Shown piece by piece: positions 1 through 11,060 of a DNA stretch of 23,666 nucleotides. The position numbers and the translations under genes are program-made. Source of the DNA: a virus (lineage: Duplodnaviria; Heunggongvirae; Uroviricota; Caudoviricetes); IMG/VR virus record IMGVR_UViG_2617270998_000010. The stretch is one strand, 5' to 3'. Under the pieces are notes generated by a model. That model was not told where the DNA came from, did not search any database, and worked only from the letters and a program-made list of their open reading frames with translations. Each line of letters opens with the position of its first letter. Position 1 is the stretch's first letter.

Positions 1-1053
1 TTACGGGGTAATGCCAACCGCTGCCGCCACTTTGTCGCCACTTGGCAGCGTTGCCAGAGGATTGAAACGGAGCGCCGTTTCCAGATGATCCGGTGCCAGA
101 TGTGCGTAACGCATAGTCATTTTTATATCGTGGTGTCCGAGAATTTTTTGTAAGGCCAGAATGTTTCCACCCGACATCATGAAGTGCGCTGCAAACGTAT
201 GGCGCAGAACGTGTGTGAGTTGACCGCGAGGGAGCACGATAGACGTTTTTTCCATCACGGATAAAAATTGAAAATAGCAGTCTGTGAAGAAATTGAACCC
301 ATCGAGCGCCATGATCTCTTCGTAAAGCTCTTTACTGATAGGGATGCTTCTGTTTTTCTTCCCCTTCGTTCTGACAAAGGTAATTCGGTATTTGGTCACC
401 TGTGAGCGGGTAAGATTTACGGCTTCACGCCAGCGTGCGCCTGTGCTTAAGCATATCTTAACTACCAGTGCCAGAATTGGGTCCTGACGTTTGCAATCAG
501 CCAGCAATTCAACAATCTGCTCATGGGTAAGCCATGCCATCTCTTTTTCTGCGATGGTGAATTTTCGCATGTTCTCCAGTGGGTTCGGATACGACCATTC
601 GCCCAGACGGGATAGTTCGCTAAAAACACTACTTAGATAGCTTTGCTCCAGGTTAATGGTGACCGGGCTTGCTCCTTTCTTCCATTTCTCGCTGAAGTAG
701 ATCTCGCCTGTCAGGCGTTTATCTCGATAGTGAGCAAACATTTTTGAGGTGAGATCAGTTGCAAGGGGATTTCCCAAGGCGTCAACCATCAACAGCAGCT
801 TGTTGTAGACATGCTGTCCGGCAGTAAGAGATTTGCCATGTAATTTGAACCATAGCTCAACCATATCTTTCAGTGTCCGACGATCCACTGATTCGCCCAG
901 CCAGGGTTTTGCTTCTATTTCCCCCATGGTGTATCGCTCGAAGGCCAGTGCTTCGCCTTTGGTGGCGAATTGTTTACGCACACGGCGTCCGCTACGTCCG
1001 GCGGGGTAACATTCGCAAAGCCATTTTCCTGTGGTGAGTTTTCGTACTGCCAT
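1..1053 (-). CDS. int: Phage tyrosine integrase (P2/186 Int family)
   Basis: ORF 1..1068 (-). C-terminal tyrosine-recombinase motifs (HVLRHTFAAH ... GHHDIKMTMRYAHL). Stop codon is at bases 1-3, so the gene is complete. Start placed at the second ATG (1053, MAVRK...) which has a GAGGG Shine-Dalgarno; the upstream ATG at 1068 is the alternative. Confidence 0.9.
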   Translation of the reverse strand: MAVRKLTTGKWLCECYPAGRSGRRVRKQFATKGEALAFERYTMGEIEAKPWLGESVDRRTLKDMVELWFKLHGKSLTAGQHVYNKLLLMVDALGNPLATDLTSKMFAHYRDKRLTGEIYFSEKWKKGASPVTINLEQSYLSSVFSELSRLGEWSYPNPLENMRKFTIAEKEMAWLTHEQIVELLADCKRQDPILALVVKICLSTGARWREAVNLTRSQVTKYRITFVRTKGKKNRSIPISKELYEEIMALDGFNFFTDCYFQFLSVMEKTSIVLPRGQLTHVLRHTFAAHFMMSGGNILALQKILGHHDIKMTMRYAHLAPDHLETALRFNPLATLPSGDKVAAAVGITP

Positions 1054-1060
1054 AAAAAAT

Positions 1061-1078
1061 GCCCTCATATCAGAGGGC
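1061..1078 (-). terminator. GC-rich hairpin (GCCCTC-N6-GAGGGC) followed on the minus strand by a T-run, immediately 5' of the int start; terminator-like or translational control element
   Basis: Inverted repeat read directly; on the minus strand the order is stem-loop, ATTTTTT, then the int ATG. The stem contains the int SD (GAGGG). Confidence 0.35.
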
Positions 1079-1144
1079 TAAATTTAACTGTATATAAAAA
1101 CAGTATTCAATGTATTTTTTACTTAGTAGCATACATGTTCATGA

Positions 1145-2089
1145 TTAATCTGTTTCTTTATCACTTCCAGTTACTTTAACTTTGTCTTTGATTGTATTCA
1201 AAAATGACGCAAAACTCGGTGGTTGCTCTGTCTGACCTGAAAATGCAGAGTCACCTGAAATATTCCAATCCTTAAAGACTTCTATTGCATCCTCTTTAGT
1301 TGCTGTAGAACCGTATATCTGCAAAAAAACTTGACCAAACATCAAAGCATGTCGACGATCTTTTCGCCTGATCGATTCATGTGTGTACTTTTTTGAGTTA
1401 CTAAGGCAGATATATGATAGCCATGAAAGAATGGCGATTCCAACTAATCCTCGCGTGAAGATATATATTAACTGAAGGTTAGTGAGATTTTTTAAATCTA
1501 AGTTCATGTATAATGTAAAAAAAGCAGATACTACTGCAAGGAAGCCAAAAAATACCCCTGCAATAGACCAGATAATAGACATCAATATAAAATGTTTGTC
1601 ATCACTACCAAGATCTGATTTAACATCGTTAACATAGGTGGGGATTTTATCATCGATTCTTTGTTGCTGTACTTGGCTACGGAGTTCCTTATTTTCACTA
1701 ATCAATGAATTAATTTGTTTTACGTTGTTTTCGATTATTGCGTTTTTTCTATTAAGATCCTGAGTATAATGCTCTAACTGTAGAGTTAATATGCTGTTTC
1801 GTTCTTCTAATTGTATTATATGTTCTACATAATTATTAGGTTCAAGTGATTTTACATTTTTTCTTTTATTGGCTTTATTTTCATTTATATTGGGTTCTTC
1901 ATCCATCGGTGGCCTAGTTATGTATTTTTCAATTAGCGCTAGGTTATTATGAGCTTCAGAAAGCTCTCCTGCTTCTATTAAGTCTTTTATATGAGAGTAG
2001 AAGTGTTTTGCTATATTTTCAGACTGTGAATCAAGAAATTCTAATAGGTGTTTTTTTATTTCGCTATCTTTATTGGTTGGTTCAGTCAT
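1145..2089 (-). CDS. Hypothetical membrane protein: N-terminal coiled-coil region, two predicted TM helices, short C-terminal domain; AT-rich insertion between cI and int
   Basis: 314-aa ORF. Hydrophobic stretches ILMSIIWSIAGVFFGFLAVVSAFFTLYM and LIYIFTRGLVGIAILSWLSYICL. Clearly lower GC than the flanking int and cI. Only 11 bp downstream of the cI stop on the same strand. No family recognised. Confidence 0.6.
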   Translation of the reverse strand: MTEPTNKDSEIKKHLLEFLDSQSENIAKHFYSHIKDLIEAGELSEAHNNLALIEKYITRPPMDEEPNINENKANKRKNVKSLEPNNYVEHIIQLEERNSILTLQLEHYTQDLNRKNAIIENNVKQINSLISENKELRSQVQQQRIDDKIPTYVNDVKSDLGSDDKHFILMSIIWSIAGVFFGFLAVVSAFFTLYMNLDLKNLTNLQLIYIFTRGLVGIAILSWLSYICLSNSKKYTHESIRRKDRRHALMFGQVFLQIYGSTATKEDAIEVFKDWNISGDSAFSGQTEQPPSFASFLNTIKDKVKVTGSDKETD

Positions 2090-2100
2090 GATGTTTCTCT

Positions 2101-3036
2101 TTATACATTTTTAGTAAAAACTCTTTTACATTTTGCCAAAACGATAATGTCAGTAAGTAAGCATTCAAAACTTGCGTTAGTGCCTACAACTTTAACCATA
2201 CCAACGGGTATGCGAGTCAAATCTTTGATACTTATTTTCCCTTCAATATTCACAAGCCACTTGCCATCAGTAACTTCATTAAATTTTGATTCTACAATAT
2301 ATATTTCCTCATCAATGAATACTGCTAAAGGTTGCAGAAAGGTTCCTTCTAACAACTTAGAGTCAAAAGTCAAGAAGGTTTCTTGAGCAAGAGATCCATC
2401 AATTATTTTATGATATGGGATAGTGATAGTATCGTTTCGAGGCTTTTCAAACATTGCCCCGTTACCAGTGGTTAGCCATGTTAATGAAGCACCGGTTTCC
2501 AGTGAGCATTGAATAATCCAGTCAGCAGGAAAGGTATCTCTCATGTAACGATTGGCTAATGTACTTTTTGATACACCAATATGATCAGCTAAAGCTTGTC
2601 TTGTCTTAAATCCATAAGCCAAAACGATTCGCTCTATTGCTGCTTTTCCACCTTGGTTAATAGTAAAAGAGTTCTCATTTTGGATGTCTTGTTCTCTATT
2701 GAGATGTTGATGCTTGCTGTCACAATTGTTGTGACTTTTTTCTGCATTATTTGTAATGCTTCCCTTCTCGGTATCAGTGCCAAATGCCAACCACTCGACC
2801 GGCACTCCAGTCTCCATGCTACAGATAACAACCCAATCAGCAGGGAAAGTGTCACGGGCATACCTGTTCGCCATTGTACTTTGCGATATACCTAGGTGAT
2901 TACAGAATGCTTGTCGGGAAGAAAAACCATAGGCTTTCAGTATCCGATCTATAACCGATTGCCCTCCGCGATTCTGCATGATTAAGGATTTCTTTTTTTC
3001 GTCCACATGGCGAAATGTGATTTCATGTGTTGACAT
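2101..3036 (-). CDS. cI: Phage 186 CI-type immunity repressor with a tandemly duplicated N-terminal DNA-binding domain
   Basis: 311-aa ORF. Two internal repeats (about res 23-88 and 128-195) each resemble the 186 CI N-terminal HTH domain (...AYGF..RQA...HLGISQST.ANRY.RDTFPADW...ETG....WL.TG). Divergent from the Apl/CII operon, as in 186. Confidence 0.8.
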   Translation of the reverse strand: MSTHEITFRHVDEKKKSLIMQNRGGQSVIDRILKAYGFSSRQAFCNHLGISQSTMANRYARDTFPADWVVICSMETGVPVEWLAFGTDTEKGSITNNAEKSHNNCDSKHQHLNREQDIQNENSFTINQGGKAAIERIVLAYGFKTRQALADHIGVSKSTLANRYMRDTFPADWIIQCSLETGASLTWLTTGNGAMFEKPRNDTITIPYHKIIDGSLAQETFLTFDSKLLEGTFLQPLAVFIDEEIYIVESKFNEVTDGKWLVNIEGKISIKDLTRIPVGMVKVVGTNASFECLLTDIIVLAKCKRVFTKNV

Positions 3037-3124
3037 AACCGATTTGTGATCCTATTCTCCGAAATGTGAAGTTAAAGCCACGATTAAAACTGACTCACCA
3101 CAAGCCAATAGGAGATGTTGCATC
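3037..3124. promoter_or_regulatory. Divergent cI / apl intergenic region: expected lysogenic/lytic switch promoters and CI/Apl operators
   Basis: 88-bp gap between the divergently transcribed cI and apl-like genes; AAATGTGA-like motifs recur at about 3012 and 3062. Assigned by position only; exact operators not resolved. Confidence 0.45.
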
Positions 3125-3346
3125 ATGACCCCTAACATTTCAATAACCCTGAATACGCCACATGTCACAATTGAGCGTTATAGCGAACTTACTGGTCTTT
3201 CAATCGACACAATTAACGATATGCTGGCTGACGGTCGCATCCCTCGGCATCGCCTTCGGAAAGACAAGAAAAGAGAAAAGGTAATGATCAACCTTGCTGC
3301 TCTTACCGTTGATGCACTTACTGATTGCAATGTTGTATTCAACTAG
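3125..3346 (+). CDS. apl: Apl/Cox-like excisionase and switch regulator (small HTH protein)
   Basis: 73-aa ORF, first gene of the rightward operon opposite cI and directly upstream of the CII homolog. Assignment rests mainly on position and size. Confidence 0.5.
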
Positions 3347-3378
3347 TTCCATTTTGGGATACATCAGAGGTGTCGACC

Positions 3379-3888
3379 ATGTTTGATTACCAAGTTTCCA
3401 AACATCCACATTTTGATGAAGCCTGTCGTGCATTCGCACTGCGCCACAATCTGGTGCAACTGGCAGAACGTGCAGGCATGAATGTGCAGATTCTGCGGAA
3501 CAAACTGAACCCAGCTCAACCTCATTTATTAACCGCACCAGAAATTTGGTTGCTTACCGATCTGACTGAAGATTCAACGCTGGTAGATGGTTTTCTGGCA
3601 CAGATTCATTGTCTGCCATGTGTTCCGATTAATGAGGTGGCAAAAGAGAAACTACCGCATTACGTCATGAGTGCAACCGCAGAGATCGGGCGTGTTGCTG
3701 CAGGTGCGGTATCTGGCGATGTAAAAACCAGTGCAGGTCGTCGTGATGCTATCAGCAGCATTAACTCTGTAACACGACTGATGGCGCTGGCCGCTGTTTC
3801 ATTGCAGGCCCGTTTACAGGCTAATCCTGCGATGGCGAATGCAGTTGATACCGTGACTGGCCTCGGTGCTTCATTCGGTTTGCTGTGA
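3379..3888 (+). CDS. cII: CII-like transcriptional activator (phage 186 CII family)
   Basis: Start at ATG 3379 (GAGGTG SD), inside ORF-track entry 3325..3888. N-terminus [24 protein letters not shown]...[17 protein letters not shown]...[21 protein letters not shown] matches my recollection of 186 CII closely; 169 aa. Confidence 0.75.
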
Positions 3889-3895
3889 GGTGCTT

Positions 3896-4096
3896 ATGCT
3901 GACGAAAGAACCATCATTTGCATCGCTGCTGGTAAAACAAAGTCCGGCAATGCACTACGGTCACGGCTGGATCATGGGTGAGGATGGTAAACGCTGGCAT
4001 CCGTGCCGTTCACAAGATGAATTGCTGGCAGAACTATCTACGAAAAAATGGGGGAACAAATGGCTATTGAAGGCGCTGCGGCGACTGTTCCATTAA
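3896..4096 (+). CDS. Hypothetical early protein
   Basis: ATG 3896 with GAGGTG SD inside ORF 3866..4096; about 66 aa; early-operon position; no family recognised. Confidence 0.4.
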   Translation: MLTKEPSFASLLVKQSPAMHYGHGWIMGEDGKRWHPCRSQDELLAELSTKKWGNKWLLKALRRLFH

Positions 4097-4401
4097 GACC
4101 CGGTGAACGCCTGAATGGACTTAATCATATTGCGGAGTTAAGGGCGAAAGTTTTTGGTTTGAATATTGAGTCAGAGCTTGAGCGGTTTATTAAAGATATG
4201 CGTGATCCACGGGATATCAATAATGAACAAAATAAACGGGCACTGGCTGCTATATTCTTTATGGCAAAAATTCCAGCTGAACGTCATAGCATCAGCATTA
4301 ATGAGCTGACCACTGACGAAAAGCGGGAGCTGATTAAAGCAATGAATCATTTTCGTGCGGTGGTGAGCTTATTTCCCAGACGGCTAACCATGCCGAATTA
4401 A
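4060..4401 (+). CDS. Hypothetical early protein
   Basis: ORF 4048..4401; probable start ATG 4060 (GGGGGA SD); short overlap with the upstream ORF in another frame. Confidence 0.4.
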   Translation: MAIEGAAATVPLRPGERLNGLNHIAELRAKVFGLNIESELERFIKDMRDPRDINNEQNKRALAAIFFMAKIPAERHSISINELTTDEKRELIKAMNHFRAVVSLFPRRLTMPN

Positions 4402-4468
4402 CCAACTAATGAAATTAATGGCGTAAACCCGCCGGGCATCCCTTTATCTAAATTCAGGAGAATTGATT

Positions 4469-4702
4469 ATGCGTAATATTGAAATCCTCACGACTAAAAC
4501 CGGACCGGATGACGCAGGGCTTAATATTTTACTGACAGAGGCTCGTCTGGAAGAACGCCGGGCAAGGGCTGAAGCAATGGCAGCTCGCCTTGATAGCCTG
4601 GCGTGTCATATCACATCCCGCCAGCTAAACCACGTCGAAGCGGCAGAACTGCTGCGTGTAACTGCTGAAGCAATCCAGAACGAAGCGCAGGAGATCCACT
4701 AA
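4469..4702 (+). CDS. Hypothetical early protein
   Basis: ATG 4469 preceded by AGGAG (ORF-track start 4463 is a TTG); 77 aa; its stop overlaps the next start (TAATG). Confidence 0.5.
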   Translation: MRNIEILTTKTGPDDAGLNILLTEARLEERRARAEAMAARLDSLACHITSRQLNHVEAAELLRVTAEAIQNEAQEIH

Positions 4703-4929: not shown

Positions 4930-5783
4930 GCACCATCCTGAAATGGGCGGGTAATAAAACCGCCATTATGTCCGAACTGAAAAAACACCTTCCTGCTGGC
5001 CCGCGACTGGTTGAACCTTTCGCGGGTTCCTGTGCTGTGATGATGGCGACGGATTACCCCAGCTATCTGGTTGCTGATATTAATCCTGATTTAATCAACC
5101 TCTATAAAAAGATTGCCGCTGATTGCGAATCATTTATATCTCGTGCCAGAGTCTTATTTGAGGAAGCAAACAGGGAGGTGGCTTATTACAACATAAGGCA
5201 GGAGTTTAATTACTCATCTGAAATTACTGATTTCATGAAAGCAGTATATTTCCTGTATCTCAATCGTCACGGTTACCGTGGGTTATGTCGTTATAACAAG
5301 AGCGGACATTTCAACATTCCCTACGGGAATTATAAAAATCCGTATTTCCCTGAAAAAGAAATTCGCGCATTTGCAGAAAAAGCCCAGCGGGCAACGTTTA
5401 TCTGCGCCAGCTTTGATGAAACGCTGGCGATGTTGAAGGCGGGGGATGTGGTGTATTGCGATCCGCCTTATGACGGTACGTTTTCCGGCTATCACACTGA
5501 TGGTTTCACTGAAGATGACCAGTATCACCTGGCATCCGTTCTTGAACATCGATCATCTGAAGGACATCCGGTCATTGTTTCTAACAGTGACACATCCCTG
5601 ATTCGTTCGCTGTATCGCAATTTTACTCACCACTATATCAAGGTAAAACGCAGCATCGGTGTGGCAGCTGGCGAGTGTAAATCAGCAACAGAAATCATCG
5701 CTGTTTCCGGGCCGCGCTGCTGGGTGGGATTTGATCCTTCGCGTGGCGTGGATAGTTCTGCCGTGTACGGAGTGCGTGCATGA
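4926..5783 (+). CDS. dam: DNA adenine methyltransferase (Dam-like, orphan N6-MTase)
   Basis: Start ATG 4926 inside ORF 4866..5783. N-terminus [20 protein letters not shown]...LVEPFAGS (AdoMet motif) and DPPY motif ([10 protein letters not shown]), similar to E. coli Dam. Confidence 0.85.
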
Positions 5784-8194
5784 GCCATGCTGATATGAAC
5801 AACTGCAGCGGCTTTAACGAGGTCGCAGCAGCATTCTCATGGAGCAGCCCGAAAAAGGCCATTAACCCTTATCTGGACCCGGCGGAAGTTGCGCCGGTTT
5901 CTGCGCTTTCAAACCTGATCACTCTGTACGCTGCCGATAACGAGCAGGAACAGCTGCGCCGTGAGGCGCTGAGTGATCAGGTCTGGGAGCGTTATTTCTT
6001 TAATGAATCCCGTGATCCTGTCCAGCGCGAAATCGAGCAGGATAAGCTCATTAGTCGGGCAAAGCTGGCGCATGAGCAGCAGCGTTTTAATCCGGATATG
6101 GTCATTCTGGCGGACGTCAACGCCCAGCCTTCCCATATCAGCAAGCCGCTGATGCAACGTATTGAATACTTCAGCAGCCTGGGCAGGCCAAAGGCTTATT
6201 CCCGCTATTTGCGTGAGACGATTAAGCCATGTCTGGAACGACTGGAGCATGTACGCGAGAGTCAGCTATCCACTTCTTTTCGCTTTATGGCAAGCCATGA
6301 AGGGCTGGACGGCCTGCTGATCCTGCCTGAAATGAGTCAGGATCAGGTGAAGCGCCTGTCTACCCTTGTTGCCGCGCATATGAGCATGTGCCTTGATGCA
6401 GCTTGTGGTGATTTGTATGCCACCGATGACGTTAAGCCAGAAGAAATCCGCAAGACATGGGAAAAGGTGGCAGCGGAAACCCTGCGTCTGGATGTAATCC
6501 CTCCTGCGTTTGAGCAACTCCGTCGGAAAAGAAACCGCCGTAAACCCGTGCCCTATGAACTCATTCCGGGTTCGCTGGCGCGTATGTTGTGCGCCGACTG
6601 GTGGTATCGGAAATTATGGAAGATGCGTTGCGAATGGCGGGAAGAGCAGTTGCGTGCTGTCTGCCTGGTCAGCAAAAAAGCATCTCCCTATGTCAGCTAT
6701 GAAGCCGTGATGCATAAACGTGAGCAGCGCCGTAAGTCGCTGGAGTTTTTCCGTTCTCATGAACTGGTGAACGAAGACGGCGACACGCTGGACATGGAGG
6801 ATGTGGTAAACGCCAGCAGCAGCAACCCGGCGCATCGCCGCAATGAGATGATGGCCTGTGTTAAAGGTCTGGAGCTTATCGCGGAAATGCGCGGTGACTG
6901 CGCCGTTTTCTACACCATCACCTGTCCGTCACGTTTCCATTCCACGCTCAATAACGGCAGACCAAACCCGACCTGGACAAACGCGACGGTAAGACAAAGC
7001 AGCGATTATCTGGTCGGCATGTTTGCTGCATTTCGTAAGGCGATGCACAAAGCCGGGTTGCGCTGGTATGGCGTGCGGGTGGCTGAGCCGCATCATGACG
7101 GCACAGTTCACTGGCACCTGTTGTGTTTCATGCGCAAAAAAGACCGCCGTGCCATCACTGCATTACTGCGTAAGTTTGCCATCCGTGAAGACCGCGAGGA
7201 GCTGGGCAATAACACTGGGCCGCGCTTTAAGTCTGAGTTGATTAACCCGCGCAAAGGAACGCCAACAAGCTACATCGCGAAATACATCAGTAAGAACATT
7301 GACGGGCGTGGTCTGGCTGGCGAGATCAGCAAGGAAACGGGGAAATCCCTGCGTGATAATGCTGAATACGTTAATGCCTGGGCGTCTCTGCATCGTGTTC
7401 AGCAATTCCGCTTCTTTGGCATTCCGGGGCGTCAGGCTTACCGTGAACTGCGATTGCTGGCTGGTCAGGCGGCAAGGCAACAGGGGGACAAAAAAGCAGG
7501 TGCGCCGGTACTGGATAACCCACGCCTTGATGCCATCCTGGCTGCTGCTGATGCTGGTTGTTTTGCCACCTACATCATGAAGCAGGGCGGCGTACTGGTT
7601 CCCCGCAAATATCACCTCATCAGAACCGCTTATGAAATCAACGAAGAGCCGACCGCCTATGGCGATCACGGCATTCGTATTTATGGCATCTGGTCACCTA
7701 TTGCAGAGGGCAAGATCTGCACTCATGCCGTGAAGTGGAAAATGGTTCGTAAGGCCGTTGATGTTCAGGAGGCGGCAGCCGACCAGGGCGCTTGCGCCCC
7801 TTGGACTCGTGGCAATAACTGTCCCCTTGCTGAAAATTTGAACCAACAGGAGAAAGATAAATCAGCTGATGGGGACACCAGAACGGATATTACCCGCATG
7901 GATGACAAGGAGTTGCACGATTTTCTGCACAGTATGAACAAAAAAGAGCGCCGGGAACTGGCTGCAAGGTTACGCCTGGTGAAACCGAAACGGCGTAGAG
8001 ACTACAAACAGCGAATTACAGACCATCAACGACAGCAGCTCGTCTATGAACTGAAGTCCAGAGGATTTGATGGCAGCGAGAAAGAGGTCGATTTACTCCT
8101 TCGCGGTGGCAGTATTCCGTCAGGAGCAGGCCTGCGTATCTTCTATCGGAACCAGCGTCTGAAGGAAGATGATAAGTGGCGGAACCTGTATTAA
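5780..8194 (+). CDS. A: Replication initiation endonuclease gpA (rolling-circle, HUH family)
   Basis: 804-aa ORF; HUH-like motif ([10 protein letters not shown]) and tyrosine motif ([14 protein letters not shown]); position and size match P2 gpA / 186 A; ATGA overlap with dam. Confidence 0.9.
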
Positions 8195-8286
8195 TTACGC
8201 GGGTTAACAATTCGTGCTCTTAATAATACCAGGCATATCAGGCCGATGAACGTAAAAAAACGTTTTACATCAGTAAGATTATTATA

Positions 8287-8306
8287 TACTGTAAATATAA
8301 ACAGTG
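8287..8306. promoter_or_regulatory. LexA operator (SOS box) TACTGTAAATATAAACAGTG upstream of the tum/DinI-like operon
   Basis: CTGT-N8-ACAG with 17/20 identity to the consensus TACTGTATATATATACAGTA, about 40 bp upstream of the 8347 start; TATACT -10-like hexamer overlaps it. Confidence 0.6.
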
Positions 8307-8346
8307 GTTATGTATACAGTATTGCTTTGGTGTTATAGGAGGAAAG

Positions 8347-8535
8347 ATGCAGGACTATTTTTTGGAGTCTTTGAAGCTCCAGCGCATTGATTTTTTTCTT
8401 AAGCTTGTAGCGGCTAGCGAGTGTAGTGATGAAGAGAAGGGGCTGGCTTTGCAGTGGGTTTCTGAATTGACTGATGAACTCATGGCAAAAATCAGAACCC
8501 ACGAATACAACCGCTCAATGGATGTCATCAGTTGA
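8347..8535 (+). CDS. Small SOS-regulated protein, possible Tum-like antirepressor
   Basis: 62-aa ORF with strong AGGAGG SD immediately downstream of the LexA box; equivalent position to 186 tum. Functional assignment is by context. Confidence 0.45.
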   Translation: MQDYFLESLKLQRIDFFLKLVAASECSDEEKGLALQWVSELTDELMAKIRTHEYNRSMDVIS

Positions 8536-8545
8536 GGTGACTTTT

Positions 8546-8779
8546 ATGCGCATTGAAATAATGATCGATAAAGAGCAGAAGATTAGCCAGTCTATCCTGG
8601 ACGCCCTTGAATCCGAGCTTTACCGCAATCTGCGCCCCCTGTATCCCAAAACGGTAATTCGTATCCGCAAAGGTAGCACTAACGGTGTGGAACTGACCGG
8701 ACTGCAACTGGACGAAGAAAGGAAGCAAGTGATGAAAATTATGCAGAAGGTGTGGGAAGACGACAGCTGGCTGCATTAA
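8546..8779 (+). CDS. DinI-family protein
   Basis: Start ATG 8546 (GAGGTG SD) inside ORF 8474..8779. MRIEIMIDK...DALESEL...ERKQVMKIMQKVWEDDSW parallels E. coli DinI (MRIEVTIAK...DALAGEL...KQRISEILQETWESADDW). Confidence 0.7.
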   Translation: MRIEIMIDKEQKISQSILDALESELYRNLRPLYPKTVIRIRKGSTNGVELTGLQLDEERKQVMKIMQKVWEDDSWLH

Positions 8780-9049
8780 GAAACGTTGCTGGCGTCTGAA
8801 CTTGCTTCTGGCGTCAGCAAGGTTGAACAACGAGCTATGCGAGGCGTTAGTGTCAATTTGTTACCTTAACCACTATATATGCCAGGAAATTAACAGTTCT
8901 TAAGAAACCGCTTGCATGATCGAGCGCATTGAACTTAAGTTTAAGTAACGAAATCAACAGATGATATTGTTGTCTAAATTTTAAAGATAATCTGTTGAGG
9001 TTGTAGGCGTCGAAGTGTAGACTTCCGCGCCATGTGAAAAGGGGGAGTT

Positions 9050-9265
9050 ATGTCAAGCATCGCCGCATTTAGCCTGGGTAACCCAGTTGAACGTCTGGCA
9101 AGGGTTCTTAAAGAGAACCAGGACAAACTCAATCTTAGTAAAGATGGTTTTGTGTCCGTAGACTTGTCTAACAAAAGAGCAATGGATGCCATCAAGGCAC
9201 AGATGGATAAGCTTGAAGGCATCAAAACGAGCACTGTAAAAGAGAAAACTAATAGAACCAGATAA
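9050..9265 (+). CDS. Hypothetical small soluble protein (71 aa), first gene of a coupled accessory pair
   Basis: ATG 9050 preceded by AAGGGGGAG; predicted helical and charged; stop overlaps the next start (TAATG at 9263-9267). Confidence 0.5.
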   Translation: MSSIAAFSLGNPVERLARVLKENQDKLNLSKDGFVSVDLSNKRAMDAIKAQMDKLEGIKTSTVKEKTNRTR

Positions 9266-10107
9266 TGGCAACATTACTTTTAGCAGTGATTTTGGTTAGT
9301 GGTTTTATTTATGTAAACCTATCACTTTCAACAAGATACCGATATAAGCGTTCCAACGGCTGGGACGCTTATTTTTTTGTGGCTGCCTGGGGTATCGTTT
9401 TTTTTCTCCTTGGCGGTTTTTTCACCTTTATTTTGAACGTCAGCGGAGGGTTTCGTTTGCTGGCTAATGCCTTGAATCTAACACCTGACAGTTTTAATGG
9501 CATGTTGTCTTCATCGAAAGACAAACTTCAAAGAATAAATGAAATTAAACAGATAGCATGGGTTATGATTTCAATTGTCCTCGCTGCGATTTCAGGTTTT
9601 GGAAATAAGTTACGCACATCACGTGGAGATCGTCGCTGGGATGCCTTAGCTAAAGCTGTGGGTAATAACGCTTTCGAATCATTACTTATGGAAGCGTCCG
9701 CAAGACAGTTTCCGATCATAGCAACTCTGTCGTCTCGCAAAATCTATGTTGGCCTTGTTACTTGTCCGGCGTTAGAAAACGGGCTTTCAGAGCACCTTGA
9801 ACTTCTCCCGATGTTAAGCGGATATCGGGATAAAGATGATCTAACGATTAGTATCACGACTAACTATCACCAACATTATCTTGATAGTGGTGTGATAAGT
9901 GGAATGTCTCGGCTTAATATCGAAGATTTCCGTGTGCTCATACCAAAAGATGAGGTTGAAACAATTTCGTTTTTTGATACTGAGACATATAACAAATTTA
10001 AAGAAAATGAAGCCAGGGATAGAAAGAACTGTCGAAAGATTGGTAGTAAAAGTGCATCTTCGCGCAGCAAGCGTGCAGCAGATGCTGAGTCAAATGATCG
10101 TGCATGA
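9265..10107 (+). CDS. Hypothetical membrane protein (three predicted N-terminal TM helices plus about 160-aa soluble C-terminal domain with basic tail)
   Basis: 280-aa ORF. Hydrophobic segments at res 3-20, 35-57 and 95-112. AT-rich. Sits between the tum module and cos, the old/tin position of P2. No family recognised. Confidence 0.6.
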   Translation: MATLLLAVILVSGFIYVNLSLSTRYRYKRSNGWDAYFFVAAWGIVFFLLGGFFTFILNVSGGFRLLANALNLTPDSFNGMLSSSKDKLQRINEIKQIAWVMISIVLAAISGFGNKLRTSRGDRRWDALAKAVGNNAFESLLMEASARQFPIIATLSSRKIYVGLVTCPALENGLSEHLELLPMLSGYRDKDDLTISITTNYHQHYLDSGVISGMSRLNIEDFRVLIPKDEVETISFFDTETYNKFKENEARDRKNCRKIGSKSASSRSKRAADAESNDRA

Positions 10108-10154
10108 CTATGCTGCATGAGATCGCATGATCGTTTGAGGATCATTTTTGCTAA

Positions 10155-10180
10155 GGCCCGCCAGAACTGGCGGGCTTTTG
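10155..10180 (+). terminator. Rho-independent terminator (GCCCGCC-N6-GGCGGGC followed by TTTT)
   Basis: Perfect 7-bp GC stem and T-tract read directly, 48 bp after the stop of the 9265..10107 gene. Confidence 0.7.
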
Positions 10181-10224
10181 CGTAGATCATGCAACTGCAT
10201 GAAAACCACTACATAAAGCGGGCA

Positions 10225-10243
10225 GGCGTGGCGGGGATACGAG
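10225..10243 (+). other. Probable cos site (19-nt cohesive end) GGCGTGGCGGGGATACGAG
   Basis: Close to the P2/186 cohesive-end sequence as I recall it (GGCG[A/T]GGCGGGGAAAGCA.), with GCGCGCT conserved just downstream; correct orientation relative to the portal gene. Confidence 0.5.
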
Positions 10244-10353
10244 CGCGCGCTCATGGTTGAATTAATGAAATTATGGTGTTAAATAGGCTAGCTTTTTAAG
10301 TCGTGAATATTCAATTTTTCAACTCATTTTTTTCATAGGGAGGAGTAATTGAC

Positions 10354-11052
10354 ATGGTTATGTTAGTGGATGACTGTCCACGATGTGGATCACAAAAAAT
10401 AGCGTTTGATGTTAATGGGCTGAATTGCACTAGGGTTTACAATGCATTGGGCGGGGGTAAAACATACGAGTACGAGGTCTATTGTGTTTGCCGAGAGTGT
10501 CATAAAACGACAATGTTTCTTTGCAGACCTTTAACGAAAAATAAAACTTTAGATGGCTATAATTGGAAAAGTGGAATATTCGGCTTAAAGGAAGTTGCAG
10601 AGGTTGTTAGGCCTATATCACCAGCAGACTTAGCAGTAGAGGAGCCACCAGAGTTCTTACCTGAGCATATCAATAGTGCATATGAGGAAGGGGCGAAATG
10701 TTTGGCTATAGGTTGTTATAATGCAGCAGCAACCATGTTTAGGCTTTGCCTTGATTATGCCACAAAAGGACTTCTTCCTGATGGGGAGCAAGGGCCTGCG
10801 CAAAAAATAAGGAGAAGCCTAGGGTTAAGAATGGAGTGGTTATTTGATAATCATCTACTGCCTGAAGCTTTAAGGGAACTAGCTGAATGCGTTAAAGATG
10901 ACGGAAATGATGGAGCGCATGAAGGTATTTTGGATAAAGCTGCTGCTGAGGATCTTGAAGATTTTACCTATCTTTTTTTAGAACGGCTTTACACTGAACC
11001 TCAACGCCTTATCGAAGCCAAGACAAGGCGTGAACAAAGAAGAAACAAATAA
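10354..11052 (+). CDS. Hypothetical protein: N-terminal Zn-ribbon (CPRCG...CRECH) plus C-terminal DUF4145/HEPN-like domain; accessory gene between cos and Q
   Basis: 232-aa ORF, ATG 10354 with GGGAGGAG SD. Two CxxC pairs in the first 50 residues. C-terminal alpha-helical region ending ...LAECVKDDGNDGAHEG resembles the GN-x-AH signature I associate with DUF4145. AT-rich; convergent with Q (stops 8 bp apart). Confidence 0.6.
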   Translation: MVMLVDDCPRCGSQKIAFDVNGLNCTRVYNALGGGKTYEYEVYCVCRECHKTTMFLCRPLTKNKTLDGYNWKSGIFGLKEVAEVVRPISPADLAVEEPPEFLPEHINSAYEEGAKCLAIGCYNAAATMFRLCLDYATKGLLPDGEQGPAQKIRRSLGLRMEWLFDNHLLPEALRELAECVKDDGNDGAHEGILDKAAAEDLEDFTYLFLERLYTEPQRLIEAKTRREQRRNK

Positions 11053-11060
11053 GTTCGGAA

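Follow-up and report, generated by a model that had tools for sequence, protein, structure and literature searches.

A membrane protein gene in the cI-int slot of a 186/P2-like Escherichia coli prophage is a candidate anti-phage effector

The DNA analyzed here is a stretch of 23,666 nucleotides (nt), called the window below, from the virus record IMGVR_UViG_2617270998_000010. It covers the early/lysogeny region, together with a part of the structural one, of a 186/P2-like (Peduoviridae) Escherichia coli prophage. The gene in question, ORF314, is an open reading frame (ORF) located between the gene for the cI-type immunity repressor and the integrase gene int, as shown in Table 1. A preliminary description had given the span of this gene as 1054-2100, which is an intergenic-to-intergenic interval, and had placed it on the same strand as cI, close behind that gene and upstream of int. 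This placement was borne out: ORF314 starts 11 nt past the TAA stop codon of cI and ends 91 nt before the ATG of int at position 1053, all three genes being on one strand. For int, the mechanically called ORF (1..1068) is longer than the 350-amino acid (aa) form beginning MAVRKL that is annotated in Klebsiella phage KP12 and in RefSeq. The repressor matched Phage_CI_repr in two stretches (E 3.9e-58) and Phage_CI_C (E 1.6e-26) in Pfam, and so consists of two tandem helix-turn-helix (HTH) domains followed by the CI C-terminal domain.

Table 1. Coordinates of genes, spacers, and protein segments in and around the cI-int slot of the window (TM, transmembrane segment; AF2, AlphaFold2).
Feature	Position	Strand	Basis or remark
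Tyrosine integrase, 350 aa; downstream edge of the slot	1..1053	-	Pfam Int_N + Phage_integrase
ORF314-int spacer with two hairpins	1054..1144	-	terminator scan, RNA fold
Cargo segment	1114..2100	.	blastn of window against sister prophages L001, L002, L014-L018
ORF314, 314-aa predicted inner-membrane protein, ATG start; cargo gene in question	1145..2089	-	ORF list; stop codon 1145-1147
Residues 230-291, juxtamembrane cytoplasmic module, most conserved part of the family	1217..1402	-	alignments A1, A2, A3
Residues 167-229: TM1 167-195, periplasmic loop 196-204, TM2 205-229	1403..1591	-	hydropathy, alignment A1
Residues 61-166: disordered linker 62-81 and long coiled-coil-like stalk 84-166	1592..1909	-	AF2, alignment A1
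Residues 1-60, small three-helix N-terminal head, variable between alleles	1910..2089	-	AF2
cI-ORF314 spacer, 11 nt, AGAGAAACATC, weak purine-rich ribosome-binding stretch	2090..2100	-	sequence
cI-type immunity repressor, 311 aa; gene upstream in the presumed lysogenic transcript	2101..3036	-	Pfam
Cox/Apl-like gene, cII, Dam methylase, gpA replication protein, then portal and other structural genes	after cI	+	
DinI-like gene	8474-8779	+	gpA-portal interval
280-aa protein without family match	9265-10107	+	gpA-portal interval
232-aa DUF4145 protein; weak similarity to PD-T7-4, E 1.2e-6	10354-11052	+	gpA-portal interval

The composition of the gene had been called foreign, and we found a GC content of 0.328 for ORF314 against 0.504 for the whole window (int 0.489, cII 0.484, gpA 0.534); the low-GC patch runs on into cI (0.386). 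A spurious frame in AT-rich DNA was considered and ruled out. The chance probability of an open frame of 314 codons at the given base composition is about 7e-12, the protein is conserved, and in comparisons with the E. coli, Enterobacter, and Dickeya homologues the core had proportions of nonsynonymous differences (pN) of 0.20-0.23 and of synonymous differences (pS) of 0.69-0.77, so that the core is under purifying selection. Therefore, ORF314 is a real gene under selection. The corresponding dN/dS values for the N-terminal part are unreliable, as that part aligns poorly and its synonymous sites are saturated.

A scan found no promoter-like site within the 11 nt between the two genes or in the cI 3′ end, a gap of this size being too short for a promoter, and no terminator-like site between cI and ORF314. 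Because of this, the simplest reading is that ORF314 is carried on the cI repressor transcript and would thus be made in lysogens. The only terminator-like hairpin on this strand lies 3′ of ORF314: it is the second hairpin of the ORF314-int spacer (1078..1061, minus strand), which is GC-rich, reads GCCCTCTGATATGAGGGC followed by T6, and abuts the int ATG. RNA folding at the spacer gave -24.2 kcal/mol (z -2.8). Because the spacer is conserved up to 1113 with prophages that bear other cargo, the hairpin is a feature of the prophage backbone and not of the cargo. Transcription from cI could be terminated or attenuated by it before int is reached, or it could control the translation of int.

Comparison of the window with sister prophages showed that the position of ORF314 is occupied by different genes. 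Where the int region is 92-96% identical (95.7% DNA identity with KP12), the gene between int and cI differs from prophage to prophage, and at least four types of cargo were seen beside the conserved int flank. Klebsiella phage KP12, Escherichia phage vB_EcoM-813R9, and E. coli FUJ80154 have an int that is 93-96% identical, and their slot holds a gene for a 558-aa protein, identified as PD-Lambda-1 (PADLOC E 7.3e-120; DUF4041 + T5orf172), which has been validated experimentally as a defence gene (PMC9519451). In BL21(DE3), EC581, and an avian pathogenic E. coli strain it holds a gene for a 63-aa cysteine-rich secreted peptide, and in Klebsiella phage 4LV2017 one for a 349-aa protein. The 63-aa peptide (4041-4232 of L017, which is BL21(DE3); also in L015 and L018) has a signal-peptide-like N terminus and several cysteines. 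The 4LV2017 protein was found to be unrelated to ORF314. The cI-int slot of this prophage is therefore a cargo hotspot that includes a validated defence gene as an alternative allele, which upholds the earlier suggestion that ORF314 is placed like lambda rexAB, as accessory cargo right after the repressor. The idea of such a hotspot is already known in principle: the cI-int interval of K139-like, P2-related Vibrio phages has been named as a defence hotspot (PMC9122126). In a 2026 survey, 8% of P2 defence systems were located between integrase and primase (PMC13586616).

On the int side, similarity to sister prophages with other cargo ends at about 1113-1136. The other edge of the cargo segment adjoins cI, which is variable too, and the heterologous tract can reach about 3077-3110. 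The repressor of sister prophages has 187-198 aa and a single HTH, compared with the 311-aa double-HTH form of the window. In E. coli, the long form goes with both alleles of the two-TM (2TM) gene and likewise with the 4LV2017 cargo, and in Dickeya and Yersinia a short cI precedes the 2TM homologue.

The preliminary description had also proposed a coiled-coil N-terminal part, two TM helices, and a short C-terminal domain for the ORF314 protein, and hydropathy together with an AF2 model agreed with this. Hydropathy gave TM segments at about 167-195 and 205-229 with a strongly basic stretch (KK..RRKDRR) after the second. Because the positive charges come after TM2, both termini of this predicted inner-membrane protein are expected to be cytoplasmic. 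The AF2 model, based on an alignment of 147 sequences, had a mean predicted local distance difference test score (pLDDT) of 87.4 and contained three short helices within residues 6-58 (6-21, 28-39, and 43-58, pLDDT about 90), a disordered linker, a continuous helix 84-194 that forms the stalk and runs into TM1, a helix 204-259 comprising TM2 and a cytoplasmic extension, and short C-terminal helices. The only matches that backed the coiled-coil character were generic ones (Crescentin rod, GCN4, IpaB, and prefoldin).

Conservation along the protein is uneven. Within the close family, mean identity is 15% over residues 1-83, 22% over residues 84-135, and 62% over the end of the stalk (residues 136-166, motif QQxRIDxKIPxYV). 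TM2, in which R213 and G214 are invariant, has 71% identity, compared with 28% for the 9-residue periplasmic loop. The highest values belong to the cytoplasmic segment after TM2 (91%) and the next helix (80%), which retain 49 and 41%, respectively, in remote relatives. The motif of this juxtamembrane module is YTHESIRRKDRRHALMFGQVFLQIYG...VFKDWNxSGDSAFS; H247, G252, F272, and W275 are invariant over 147 sequences, and E238, R245, A248, and N276 are conserved in at least 90%. Therefore, the functional heart of the protein consists of the membrane hairpin and the cytoplasmic juxtamembrane face and does not include the part exposed to the periplasm. As to whether ORF314 would act by exclusion or by abortive infection, the poorly conserved loop and highly conserved cytoplasmic face incline us to a mode that is intracellular or abortive.

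The boundary between the variable and the conserved part was also visible in DNA. In a comparison with a prophage that carries a 50%-identical allele (L016/L004), similarity extends over int and on through the 3′ half of the ORF, which is the conserved one (1-1678, 85%), and returns in the 5′ part of cI (2784-4500, 93%). Between these lies a single heterologous tract (1679-2783), made up of the ORF's N-terminal half and most of cI. The break at residue 137 or thereabouts matches the domain boundary of ORF314.

The sole family to which ORF314 could be assigned was phrog_2628 of PHROGs (unknown function; E 3.8e-215, 713.8 bits), with residues 1-314 aligned over the full profile (1-314 of 314). 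Scans of Pfam, NCBIfam, and PADLOC gave no model above threshold. The sub-threshold matches to DUF996, DUF2207_C, LeoC (E 0.011), and a fulvocin-related family were judged to be noise; DUF2207_C turned up again as a weak match in 24 of the 49 members of the close family, in no case above the cut-off; it lay over the coil and TM region and was treated as compositional. Fold and sequence searches of the PDB returned generic helical hairpins only, with no solved structure matching ORF314. Literature searches by accession or PHROG identifier found nothing on ORF314, although the gene may have been among those tested in the screen of E. coli prophage defences by Brenes & Laub 2025.

The strongest functional clue is domain fusion. 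In remote relatives, the membrane module is kept and the coiled-coil head is exchanged for other N-terminal domains. TIR_2 was above the Pfam gathering score in 7 of the 10 remote relatives scanned (up to 72.9 bits), a hidden Markov model built from the TIR N termini found at least 18 TIR-bearing members among the 259 relatives listed, and a search with the core only gave further members annotated PF13676 (TIR_2). MgtE_N was above its gathering score in one relative, and EAD11, an effector-associated adaptor domain, was matched weakly in two. The TIR-fused members adjoin a DpnII/MboI-type nuclease gene or sit among HNH, PIN, and ParA genes on mobile-element-like contigs. The pairing of TIR domains with membrane-spanning effectors is an established design in Thoeris-type immunity (bioRxiv 10.64898/2025.12.03.692087). 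The TIR_2 domain is confined to remote relatives, and Pfam found none in ORF314 itself. PADLOC models matched only the TIR part of the TIR-fused relatives, and because these matches stop there, the membrane module is not a catalogued effector.

The SLATT family, which had been named as one to look for, did not turn up: Pfam gave no SLATT match to ORF314 at E ≤ 1 nor in 20 remote relatives, and SLATT was not among the 25 most-matched Pfam families listed for the 49 close-family members (alignment A1). No SLATT structure was among the PDB matches, and the PADLOC models of 2TM effectors matched neither ORF314 nor ten remote relatives. A fold search of BFVD returned three viral proteins annotated as SLATT at non-significant values (E 0.21-0.60). 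No nucleotide-signal or reverse transcriptase enzyme partner was present, as ORF314 is flanked by cI and int only, and likewise for the E. coli, Dickeya, and Yersinia homologues.

These results bear on the main rival to a membrane-damaging role, namely that ORF314 is a superinfection exclusion protein that blocks genome entry at the inner membrane and does not kill the cell, like P22 SieA, T4 Imm, and HK97 gp15. An inner-membrane protein on a presumed lysogenic transcript, with no enzymatic domain, would suit such a role, and in K139-type P2 relatives the cI-int region serves to carry cargo for exclusion or defence (PMC9122126). However, the periplasmic exposure is limited to the 9-residue, poorly conserved loop and the most conserved face is the cytoplasmic one, the relatives fuse the module to the cytoplasmic immune domains TIR and EAD11, and neither PHROGs, including its exclusion-annotated families, nor Pfam gave a match to superinfection exclusion families (SieA, Imm, gp15, Cor, and others). 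We therefore consider exclusion by blocked injection fairly unlikely.

The fusions and the alleles of the slot also bear on the idea that ORF314 is a lysogenic conversion gene unrelated to phages, which would alter ion homeostasis, stress tolerance, colonization, virulence, or some other part of host physiology. Lysogeny modules can contain morons that act as fitness factors, the protein is widely present among clinical E. coli and Klebsiella, a small secreted peptide is the cargo most often sampled in the slot, and the MgtE_N domain of the one relative mentioned above is of a magnesium-sensing type. Nevertheless, conflict systems are indicated by the TIR and EAD11 fusions and the nearby nuclease genes, one allele of the slot is a validated defence gene, and family and PDB searches gave no similarity to known transporters or virulence factors, so that a role of this kind is decidedly unlikely.

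ORF314 is common in genomes. Several complete E. coli chromosomes, those of S43 and NCTC9064 among them, match positions 1000-2200 of the window with 100% identity, and at least 80% of this interval is covered in 115 of 5426 complete E. coli genomes (about 2%). The identical protein occurs on at least 1000 contigs, and the cluster at 90% identity has 509 members, which include Klebsiella pneumoniae. A word-indexed search found 160 proteins, all from Enterobacterales and almost all annotated as hypothetical or uncharacterized, and 419 cluster representatives came out of an exhaustive profile search at E ≤ 1e-3 (232 of them at E ≤ 1e-10). The named remote members are mostly from Gammaproteobacteria (Shewanella, Pseudoalteromonas, Vibrio, Yersinia, and Methylomicrobium), with a few from acetic-acid bacteria (Asaia and Acetobacter) and a Bacteroidia metagenome bin. 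In E. coli FAHZZU6014 (NZ_CP182912.1 1471974-1474240), the 1000-2200 interval matched in two pieces with an IS903B transposase annotated between them, and so an insertion sequence element lies in or beside the cargo gene.

A tblastn search of 50,697 phage records gave no match to ORF314. Predicted Klebsiella prophage records that match 2101-3400 (H1-H7, e.g., MK416009.1) have a boundary exactly at the cI stop codon, and the absence of ORF314 from the phage records, despite its frequency in genomes, is explained by prophage records being cut at this point and losing the cargo and int.

The settings of the homologues show repeated occupation of the same slot. The 50%-identical allele of E. coli and Klebsiella (P0034) is in the same place directly after cI, and the homologues of Dickeya and Yersinia (about 23% identity for the latter) are also directly after cI in 186-like prophages. 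The slot of Yersinia enterocolitica (L022, 6979-8229) contains the divergent 2TM homologue and, as a second cargo gene before int, one for a 416-aa protein that had no Pfam or PADLOC match. In an Enterobacter prophage remnant (L007-L009), cI and int are fragmented, but the gene for a 318-aa homologue (5001-5957) is intact, and its core has a dN/dS of 0.14 relative to the window gene. The intact gene in a decayed prophage and the low core dN/dS suggest that this homologue is kept because it benefits the host. Neither replication genes nor structural genes are near the Enterobacter gene, and the identical 318-aa protein is present on 21 contigs. The Pectobacterium homologue has no recognizable prophage around it and lies, near a KAP-family P-loop NTPase, in a small island (L010, 3756-9429) that may be a defence island. 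Also in this island are a zinc-ribbon protein and unassigned proteins of 240 and 198 aa.

This distribution helps to evaluate two further explanations, both of which would tie the gene to the prophage itself. The first is that ORF314 has a prophage-intrinsic role, in the timing of induction or lysis (holin/antiholin-like), in the control of cell division during lysogeny, or in the stabilization of lysogeny. Its location in the lysogeny control module would fit, a coiled coil with two TM segments is reminiscent of certain lysis or division regulators, the Dickeya homologue is called 'cell division protein ZapB' in one source, and the Yersinia homologue has a weak Phage_holin_3_6 match (E 0.0055) below the cut-off. 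ORF314 itself, at 314 aa and within the lysogeny module, had no holin match and is far from the lysis genes. Moreover, the gene is optional (about 115 of about 1100 E. coli genomes with a related int), unrelated cargo replaces it in sister prophages, and homologues are found outside prophages as well as, in intact form, in a decayed prophage no longer capable of induction; a prophage-intrinsic role is accordingly unlikely. The second explanation is that ORF314 is a membrane toxin for prophage addiction, whose loss or de-repression would be lethal to cells from which the prophage is lost. Membrane-active proteins of small size are common among toxins, and the gene is tightly linked to that of the repressor, but no candidate for an antitoxin was found, as a gene or as an RNA (the two spacers measure 11 and 91 nt, and Rfam found no RNA family there or anywhere else in the window), and the gene persists alone in the decayed prophage and in non-prophage islands, which makes addiction very improbable.

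Taken together, the slot, the distribution and recurrent capture of the gene, the domain fusions of its relatives, and the conservation of the cytoplasmic face make anti-phage defence the most likely role of ORF314, as judged from sequence. With moderate confidence, we propose that it is a lysogen-expressed, single-gene sensor-effector that would damage the membrane upon infection. In this proposal, the variable head and coiled-coil stalk would oligomerize and act as the sensor or specificity part, which we place in the N-terminal head; a cue from the infecting phage would be relayed along the uninterrupted helix of stalk and TM1; next, the conserved TM hairpin and juxtamembrane module would compromise the membrane by ion leak or pore formation; and the membrane breach would abort the infection. 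We infer oligomerization, membrane permeabilization, and a defence phenotype for ORF314.

Several points weigh against this proposal. The defence role is a prediction from sequence and modelled structure, and the hotspot position is guilt by association, with the 63-aa secreted peptide, the commonest cargo sampled, having no assigned role. Because ORF314 has no TIR or recognizable enzymatic domain, the fusions are informative about the module and not about the trigger of ORF314; of these fusions, the EAD11 matches are weak, and in ORF314 and the ten remote relatives no PADLOC model matches the membrane module. The Methylomicrobium homologue, one example of several, is in an ordinary chromosomal setting. 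Finally, a prophage with a membrane-killing effector would need a safeguard against triggering it during its own induction, and none was identified.

The ORF314 family is undescribed, and ORF314 may be regarded as a prophage-borne membrane defence candidate built on an effector module that is undescribed as well. A broader and more tentative idea is that the pre-TM helix, the 2TM hairpin, and the HES...DRxHA...FG...WN module together constitute an undescribed membrane immune-effector domain with interchangeable N-terminal heads, the head being a coiled coil in the prophage versions and TIR, EAD11, or MgtE_N in other settings. The prophage version would be a complete sensor-effector in one protein, with a hypervariable head that might recognize proteins of competing phages directly, and the TIR-fused versions might be single-chain Thoeris-like systems; we consider this set of ideas possible but doubtful. 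The members that carry this candidate domain are the 419 cluster representatives, mainly of Gammaproteobacteria.

Outside the cI-int slot, the interval between gpA and portal (8200-11060, plus strand), which is the classical P2 defence hotspot, contains the three genes given in Table 1, and it may be a second defence locus of this prophage.

If the proposed function of ORF314 is correct, it would represent a new and very compact defence family, relevant to the prediction of host range in phage therapy because the protein is common in clinical isolates. It would also provide a new membrane effector module with swappable heads, tractable for the study of how a cytoplasmic signal leads to membrane failure, and it would mean that the cI-int defence hotspot known from Vibrio K139-like phages is also present in 186-like prophages of enterobacteria. 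Cargo between cI and int is systematically missed in phage databases, as predicted-prophage records are cut at the cI stop codon.

Among known systems, Rex of phage lambda consists of two proteins, the sensor RexA and RexB with four TM segments, which are encoded by immunity-region abortive-infection genes co-transcribed with cI. ORF314 resembles rexAB in being cargo directly downstream of the repressor gene and in providing a membrane component that is a plausible ion-leak effector, whereas it differs in being one gene with two TM segments on a 186/P2-like instead of a lambdoid backbone. ORF314 had no Pfam, PHROG, or PADLOC match indicating homology to RexA or RexB. PD-Lambda-1 (Vassallo et al. 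2022) is, like ORF314, a single gene, and its place in sister prophages is exactly the cI-int slot of ORF314; it has been described as membrane-anchored with a central coiled coil (PMC9519451). The two are non-homologous, and PD-Lambda-1 has a C-terminal nuclease-type domain, in contrast to the absence of a recognizable enzymatic domain from ORF314.

The SLATT and other 2TM effectors of CBASS, retron, Thoeris type VII, and Pycsar systems share with ORF314 a 2TM hairpin with flanking cytoplasmic helices, an architecture that is not specific to SLATT, and an association with TIR domains, which in the relatives of ORF314 takes the form of fusion. Such 2TM effectors have been proposed to form oligomers that breach the membrane (bioRxiv 10.64898/2025.12.03.692087). 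ORF314 differs from them in having no partner enzyme that produces a signal and in the HES...DRxHA...FG...WN motif, which cannot be assigned to SLATT. The single-chain TIR-TM defence candidates of PADLOC are comparable to the remote relatives of ORF314 that are TIR + 2TM proteins, and one of these (P0221) matches the TIR-TM model, but the match covers the TIR part only (residues 1-129 against profile 1-130 of 293). Because of this limit, the membrane module of TIR-TM is taken to differ from that of P0221; ORF314 has no TIR domain.

A close parallel for the locus is the hotspot of K139-like Vibrio phages (Rousset et al. 2022), which has the same order of cI, variable cargo, and int on a P2-related backbone and contains known defence cargo (PMC9122126). 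The ORF314 family is not among the systems mentioned in the passages of that source that were consulted. The K139-like hotspot was described in Vibrionaceae, whereas the slot that holds ORF314 belongs to enterobacterial 186-like prophages.

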